From the NCBI GenBank assembly GCA_037310415.1, contig CP147780.1, positions 832,001 through 896,000 on the forward strand: a stretch of DNA of 64,000 bases, in the 5' to 3' direction. The stretch comes from Candidatus Atabeyarchaeum deiterrae (GTDB taxonomy: Archaea > Asgardarchaeota > Atabeyarchaeia > Atabeyarchaeales > Atabeyarchaeaceae). The notes under the pieces were generated by a model. It saw only the letters and a list, made by a program, of their open reading frames with translations, was not told the origin of the DNA and searched no databases. This document shows positions 45,413-45,604 of the stretch, one piece after another; position 1 is the first letter of the stretch, and each line of letters begins with the position of its first letter. The position numbers and the translations under genes are program-made.

Positions 45413-45458
45413 GTCCCCACCGGCCACCTTTTTTGAGGCTTTGCGCCGGCTGGTTCAT
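45413..45458 (-). promoter_or_regulatory. Candidate eukaryote-like SECIS element 1 (form 2), overlapping the vhuU stop codon
   Basis: mRNA reads AUGAA-CCAGCCGGC-GCAAA-GCCU-CAAAAA-AGGU-G-GCCGGUGG-GGAC: core quartet, GC-rich helix, AAA bulge and ministem. Confidence 0.7.
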
Positions 45459-45604
45459 CCGCTTCCAATCTGAACCTCTTTCTTGAGTATCTCCTTGTTG
45501 TTTTCGTCTAAGACAAGGAGATGTGCTGCACACGAAAGTCAACAGTCGTAGCAGCGGACGACCATCTCCAACAGGTTAAGCACTTTCTCATCTACATCGG
45601 GCAT
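45455..45604 (-). CDS. vhuU: Selenocysteine-containing C-terminal peptide of a split [NiFeSe] hydrogenase large subunit
   Basis: Hand translation [52 protein letters not shown] at 45539-45541 occupies the first ligand position of the UxxC motif. GAGGT RBS; the upstream MvhA lacks this motif. Confidence 0.92.

Follow-up and report, generated by a model that had tools for sequence, protein, structure and literature searches.

Within the 64,000-nucleotide stretch of DNA analysed here (the window), the minus strand of positions 45455-45604 almost certainly harbors vhuU, the gene encoding the small part of the split large subunit of a group-3c, Mvh/Vhu-type [NiFeSe] hydrogenase of 'Atabeyarchaeia-2', whose in-frame UGA is predicted to be recoded through a SECIS element located 3' of it. 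The reading of this UGA as selenocysteine (Sec), which had been proposed by the initial annotation, is strongly supported at the level of sequence by homology, by conservation of the TGA, by a covarying SECIS and by the Sec machinery of the genome. The gene is real and well supported, but it is already known. A VhuU of ~50 aa is listed among the selenoproteins of the complete 'Atabeyarchaeia-2' genome (Valentin-Alvarado et al. 2024, PMC11291895), Asgard VhuU and its SECIS were described in 2016 (PMC4989117) and in 2024 (PMC11227280), and Huang et al. 2024 (PMC11227280) reported a FrhA/MvhA/VhuU selenoprotein for 68% of the 227 Asgard genomes that use Sec, so that the novelty implied by the initial annotation does not hold. 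The published Asgard VhuU with its lokiSECIS is likewise a mini-gene of ~50 aa located past vhuA, with a single Sec at the nickel ligand and an AUGA-stem-GA element, and the gene described here does not differ from it in anything essential. Its absence from the ORF call is an annotation gap and not a discovery.

The mini-gene starts with an ATG at 45604-45602 and ends with a TGA stop codon at 45457-45455 (-), and it comprises 49 sense codons when the in-frame TGA at 45541-45539 (-), corresponding to residue 22, is counted among them. Under translation table 11 the frame is closed after 21 codons by this TGA, which explains why the ORF list does not give the bounds of vhuU; the 49-codon frame that had been described as absent from that list, 28 nt past the large-subunit gene, was recovered at 45604..45455 (-). 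A Shine-Dalgarno-like GAGGT (45613-45617, -) lies 8 nt 5' of the ATG, and the 28 nt are counted from the TAA of vhuA (45633-47000, -), which encodes a [NiFe]-hydrogenase large subunit of 455 aa (Pfam PF00374). VhuA holds the N-terminal ligand motif RICGIC and ends in ...KPMIKI, before the C-terminal ligand motif; its alignment to MvhA (5odc_F) reaches residue 419 of 473 and no further, which bears out the claim that this subunit stops short of its C-terminal Ni motif. The best PDB match of VhuA is the 418-aa VhuA of the split methanococcal enzyme (9sfi_g, 435 bits), and the nearest VhuA, with 85% identity, belongs to 'SRVP18_Atabeyarchaeia-1'. The cluster also includes vhuG/mvhG (46997-47908, -; PF01058), which encodes the hydrogenase small subunit, mvhD (47911-48396, -; PF02662), whose product is closest to the Cys-type MvhD 5odc_D, and hdrA (48421-50370, -), and the order hdrA-mvhD-vhuG-vhuA-vhuU is kept in one orientation with small gaps between the genes. 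Both hdrA and mvhD are of the Cys type and are uninterrupted ORFs with no in-frame TGA, as had been stated for HdrA and MvhD. At the start of the window, an ORF at 2-841 (+; 279 aa) is open at its 5' end, and its start precedes the window.

The VhuU peptide can be aligned to residues 423-457 of MvhA 5odc_F (E 1.5e-6), to MvhA 9sw2_F (E 1.6e-7) and to the 27-aa VhuU chain 9sfi_M (E 4.6e-5). In these alignments the TGA faces the C/U position of DP(C/U)xxCxxH, which is Cys in MvhA and Sec (shown as X) in 9sfi_M. The local motif, D-C-U-L-S-C-A-A-H (45521-45547, -), can be read as U22-L-S-C25-A-A-H28, which fits (C/U)xxCxxH with UGA at the first position. The initial annotation had compared it with the DPUxxCxxH of known VhuU proteins, and this comparison stands for UxxCxxH, whereas the residues that precede it are D-C-U and not D-P-U. 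Past the His, an extension of 21 residues (45458-45520, -) shows protein-level conservation with third-position variation and resembles the extension of FrhA, with whose tail the alignment runs 16 residues beyond the His. This extension would presumably be removed by a maturation endopeptidase; two genes of the HycI family of endopeptidases are present in the genome.

The genomes of 60 relatives were searched for the vhuU mini-ORF, and 80 further loci were retrieved via VhuA. The mini-ORF was found in 23 of the 60 genomes, and in every one of them its short open frame contains exactly one in-frame TGA; in the other matching genomes the match falls, a few contig-end fragments excepted, at the C-terminus of unsplit large subunits of 430-510 aa that carry Cys. 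The gene is kept in ~85 Asgard loci, where D-C-U-[LI]-[SAG]-C-[AGS]-A-H is found directly 3' of vhuA, and this recurrence of a TGA-containing mini-ORF after vhuA places the observation far beyond chance. Among 66 unique gap-free sequences, from genomes labelled Atabey-, Frey-, Jord-, Thor-, Hel-, Hod-, Hermod- and Borr- and from bins labelled only Promethearchaeota/-ia, the TGA is invariant (66/66), and so are the Asp and the Cys that precede it and the Cys(+3), Ala(+5) and His(+6) that follow. An interchange of TGA and Cys among orthologues had been put forward as a check, and the outcome favors the Sec reading: Cys occupies the TGA position only in the unsplit paralogues, and the split form always has TGA. 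In the 66 sequences, the mean column entropy at the three codon positions is 0.61/0.21/1.30 5' of the TGA and 0.81/0.51/1.39 3' of it, which indicates that the signature of a translated frame runs on to the final stop of vhuU; this periodicity upholds the claim that coding similarity continues past the TGA. Typical Asgard vhuA-vhuU loci, with Sec and lokiSECIS, were also found in DATKTW010000156.1 ('Nanopelagicaceae bacterium') and JAHWGK010000121.1 ('Thermoplasmata archaeon'), two labels that are probably due to mis-binning or mislabelling.

The Sec machinery, whose presence had also been named as a check, was found in the genome, which is a single contig of 2,756,679 bp. A cluster at ~203-213 kb holds PSTK (167 bits), SepSecS (397 bits), SelB/EFSec (286 bits) and a candidate tRNA-Sec gene, and SelD (237 bits), which has a TGA of its own, is encoded at genome positions 899256-900350 (+), ~3.3 kb past the end of the window, with an in-frame UGA that would place Sec in EHG-U-SCK. 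The candidate tRNA-Sec gene (genome 208757-208935, +; 179 nt) lies between the genes of the machinery and has a UCA anticodon, a 9-bp acceptor stem, G73, an encoded CCA, a 6-bp anticodon stem and a GGAG/CUCC T stem, together with three variable insertions (D arm of ~37 nt, variable arm, and T loop of 25 nt). Its identification relies on manual reading and on its conservation in three genomes, and its extent became apparent when the locus was aligned to those of the two nearest relatives; the minimum-energy fold of the precursor is already cloverleaf-like. Because of the insertions, the candidate scores 25.9 bits against an Rfam cut-off of 47; ARAGORN misses it. An intron in the T loop has been described for the tRNA-Sec of Loki by Mariotti et al. 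(PMC4989117).

Two other tRNA-Sec predictions in this genome were rejected. The match to the Rfam tRNA-Sec model at genome 549981-550088 (30.8 bits, whole-genome search) coincides with an intron-containing tRNA-Val called by ARAGORN. The 'tRNA-SeC' called by ARAGORN at genome 246125-246215 is really a tRNA-Arg(UCG) whose gene contains an intron of 13 nt; its twin, a tRNA-Arg(CCG) gene located 2.3 kb upstream (243848-243938), is called tRNA-Trp by the intron mode of the same program, and such mislabelled twin genes are a trap for automated calls of the Sec trait.

Besides vhuU and selD, the genome encodes another hdrA-vhuD pair, this one of the Sec type (genome 827000-829353, -; ~2.6 kb before the start of the window), with two in-frame UGA codons in each gene and a single SECIS, whose AUGA is at 826980, 8 nt past the vhuD stop, and whose apical region starts with GUAAA. 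The SECIS of selD has its AUGA at genome 900290 and shows the same GCAAA and ministem as that of vhuU, and the layout of AUGA, 9-bp stem, A-rich apical region and GA is common to vhuU, selD and hdrA-vhuD.

The SECIS of vhuU spans 45414-45458 (-) and is made up of the AUGA (45458-45455), which holds the stop codon, a spacer A, a 5' arm (45453-45445), an apical region (45444-45425), a 3' arm (45424-45416) and the GA (45415-45414). The stop codon forms part of GGAUGA, and the spacer is an extra A between AUGA and stem, which in this genome contains one A.G mismatch; the apical region consists of GCAAA and a 4-bp ministem, GCCU/AGGU. Mariotti et al. 2016 (PMC4989117) described this type of element, the lokiSECIS, including the overlap of its AUGA with the VhuU stop codon. 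In vhuU loci that end in TAA or TAG, the AUGA element is found slightly further 3'. The UGA does not vary across 69 distinct 3' ends of vhuU, and conservation is at least 90% both for the preceding A and for the A within the 3' GA/AA. The 9-bp helix has 89.5% of its cells paired and compensatory double changes at 9/9 pairs, and its covariation score is 0.867, versus 0.318 for shuffled alignments and no more than 0.28 when the partners are slid; RNAalifold independently recovers 8/9 of the stem pairs. A 20-nt apical region with a 4-bp ministem is found in Atabeyarchaeia and Freyarchaeia, where the conserved AAA is present as GCAAA. In contrast, the SECIS of Loki VhuU has an 11-nt loop, and the local element with its 20-nt ministem region is nearer to the longer, type-II-like SPS element (PMC4989117).

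No SECIS family of Rfam matched 45300-45700, which suggests that Asgard SECIS elements are apparently not represented in that database. The absence of an Rfam match there and the lack of conservation of a hairpin inside the coding sequence indicate that the vhuU element belongs neither to the methanogen type, with its GAA/A internal loop, nor to the bacterial type. A covariance model built for the vhuU SECIS gave in its own genome only the vhuU element (150 of 357 candidates scored) and missed those of selD and hdrA-vhuD; these were found by a simple pattern scan, most of whose other hits, including one at window 899 (-), look like chance.

Three other explanations of the locus have been weighed against recoding through this 3' element. 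If the in-frame TGA were a true stop codon, the large subunit would be the truncated remnant of a pseudogene, and the similarity downstream a decaying relic. The closed frame under table 11 agrees with this, as does the use of TGA as an ordinary stop codon in this genome, at the end of vhuU itself among other places; nevertheless, the TGA, the LSCAAH that follows and the 21 codons after it are kept across many Asgard lineages with variation at third positions, the SECIS 3' of vhuU covaries, and the Sec machinery is complete, all of which makes a true stop very improbable. Still harder to credit is an assembly or sequencing error that turned TGT or TGC into TGA, a chance so small as to be negligible. 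It can be raised as a general possibility only, and contigs over vhuU from four public runs, which belong to four studies, have TGA and never TGT or TGC, the codons that had been named as a refuting finding. The contigs of two of these runs match the window exactly, and these runs may be its source; those of the other two come from a relative of ~84% identity that has kept TGA, in which third codon positions, counted from the start at 45604, account for 15 of the 18 listed differences, before as well as after the TGA. The 66 distinct orthologous sequences, all with TGA, also argue against an error.

The remaining alternative accepts the insertion of Sec but assigns the signal to a hairpin in the coding sequence after the UGA (AUCUCCUUGU...ACAAGGAGAU, 45522-45489, -), in the bacterial style. 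In this genome the hairpin has a perfect 10-bp stem that starts 19 nt past the first base of the UGA; however, all 10 pairs can form in only 1 of 65 orthologues, RNAalifold gives no consensus structure in the region, SepSecS and PSTK mark the machinery as archaeal/eukaryal in type, and the element 3' of the gene covaries and has counterparts past selD and hdrA-vhuD. The coding hairpin, peculiar to this genome and devoid of consensus support, was rejected as the recoding signal, a role for which its odds are as poor as those of the true stop. Recoding of the UGA through the 3' SECIS is the reading retained in what follows.

The RNA around the SECIS may form further arms. Just 3' of it, a short hairpin, ACCUU-UGCA-AAGGU, is found at 45398-45411 (-), and nearly all Asgard vhuU loci (~65) have a hairpin at that position, usually CCCC-GCAA-GGGG, 2-6 nt past the GA of the SECIS; it is conserved mostly in sequence and shows little covariation. 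GC-rich hairpins also lie 3' of the hdrA-vhuD and selD SECIS elements in this genome. Beneath the SECIS and this hairpin, a candidate lower helix would pair GGUUCAGAU, inside the coding sequence (45468-45476, -), with AUUUGAACC (45388-45396, -). In this genome it is weak, helices as long being obtained in 14 of 200 shuffles; it is clearer, and covaries, in loci of the Thor/Loki type. In many lineages a helix of 8-11 bp pairs the terminal codons of vhuU with nucleotides past the hairpin, and its strands covary between lineages, for example GUGACUGGCG/CGCUGGUCGC, GUUGGCUU/AAGCCAAC and GUAGGCUU/AAGCCUAC, which suggests a three-armed junction. Such a junction may be composed of the lower helix reaching into the coding sequence, the conserved GCAA-type hairpin and the SECIS.

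A second GCGGAUGA at 45382-45375 (-) was considered as the beginning of a tandem SECIS and rejected: where it has AUGA, the two closest genomes have CUGA or CGGA. The hairpin that it opens (window 45346-45382, -) is a plain one of 10 bp, with a loop of 5 nt and a U-rich tail, and looks like a terminator and not like a second SECIS.

Another feature of the Asgard proteins is found next to the Sec itself. The sequence C-Y-D-C-U (45530-45553, -) has Cys at the positions of Ala and Pro in the canonical AYDP(C/U), this Pro being the non-ligand residue that usually precedes the Sec or Cys. The Cys adjacent to the Sec is invariant in 66/66 Asgard split vhuU sequences, where it makes up a vicinal dyad, C-Y-D-C-U-x-x-C. 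In methanococcal VhuU, in contrast, the corresponding residues are A-Y-D-P-U, and DPC is found in the unsplit Asgard paralogues, except for one case of DMC, so that the Cys-Sec dyad is absent from both. It is conceivable, although we regard it as rather unlikely, that the dyad forms a reversible selenenylsulfide which protects or gates the [NiFeSe] site, similar to that of the GCUG end of mammalian thioredoxin reductase, and likewise that the SECIS is part of a three-armed junction instead of the published simple hairpin. Neither the vicinal pair (D-C-U vs D-P-U) nor the extra arms around the SECIS were found in the main texts of the published Asgard Sec papers (supplements aside); in all else the locus agrees with published knowledge of Sec use and eukaryote-like SECIS elements in Asgard archaea.

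Desulfovibrio [NiFeSe] hydrogenases have Sec in place of a terminal Cys ligand of Ni, and the SECIS of bacterial [NiFeSe] hydrogenases sits within the coding sequence. The periplasmic large subunit of Desulfovibrio (2wpn, 5jsh) contains Sec like VhuU, but it is an unsplit protein of Group 1, and its sequence similarity is only distant (13 bits for the tail). The closer counterpart is the VhuA/VhuU of Methanococcales (PDB 9sfi, chains g and M), which is split at the same point and has Sec at the same ligand position, followed by xxCAAH; the SECIS of methanogens, however, is of the archaeal type with a GAA/A bulge and not a kink-turn (PMC4989117). The present enzyme also differs in its C-Y-D-C-U, and the VhuD and HdrA of its cluster are Cys forms. 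The unsplit Cys-type MvhA of Methanothermococcus and Methanothermobacter (5odc_F, 9sw2_F) shares the fold and the partners MvhG, MvhD and HdrA, and its C-terminal motif is followed by an extension, as in vhuU, but it consists of one polypeptide chain, has Cys (DPCLSCATH) and requires no recoding. Two more pairs of small and unsplit large [NiFe] subunits are encoded in this genome (1423232-1425339 and 1802261-1804621), with C-terminal open frames of the large subunit of 433 and 475 aa and ~28-29% identity to VhuA; these are other hydrogenase groups and not Cys back-ups of Vhu.

The model proposes that the 455-aa VhuA would provide the N-terminal Cys ligands, and that the 49-residue VhuU would contribute Sec22 and Cys25, followed by His28. 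During translation, the ribosome would decode the UGA at 45541-45539 as Sec, with the Sec-tRNA(Sec) brought by the archaeal/eukaryal-type SelB (EFSec), and the recoding would be directed by the SECIS that lies 84 nt downstream, at the 3' end of the mRNA, an element of the eukaryote-like kink-turn kind whose AUGA core includes the stop codon of vhuU. Once nickel has been inserted, an endopeptidase of the HycI/FrhD type is expected to cut off the 21 residues past the His, giving a selenopeptide of ~28 residues that would stay bound to VhuA. Together with VhuG, MvhD and HdrA, the mature enzyme could then couple the oxidation of H2 to flavin-based electron bifurcation.

As standard ORF callers miss vhuU, its restoration is a useful correction of the annotation, and the locus can serve as a good positive control for the detection of recoded genes. 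For the organism, the gene decides whether the Hdr-linked hydrogenase can function, since without VhuU the annotated large subunit misses half of its nickel ligands.
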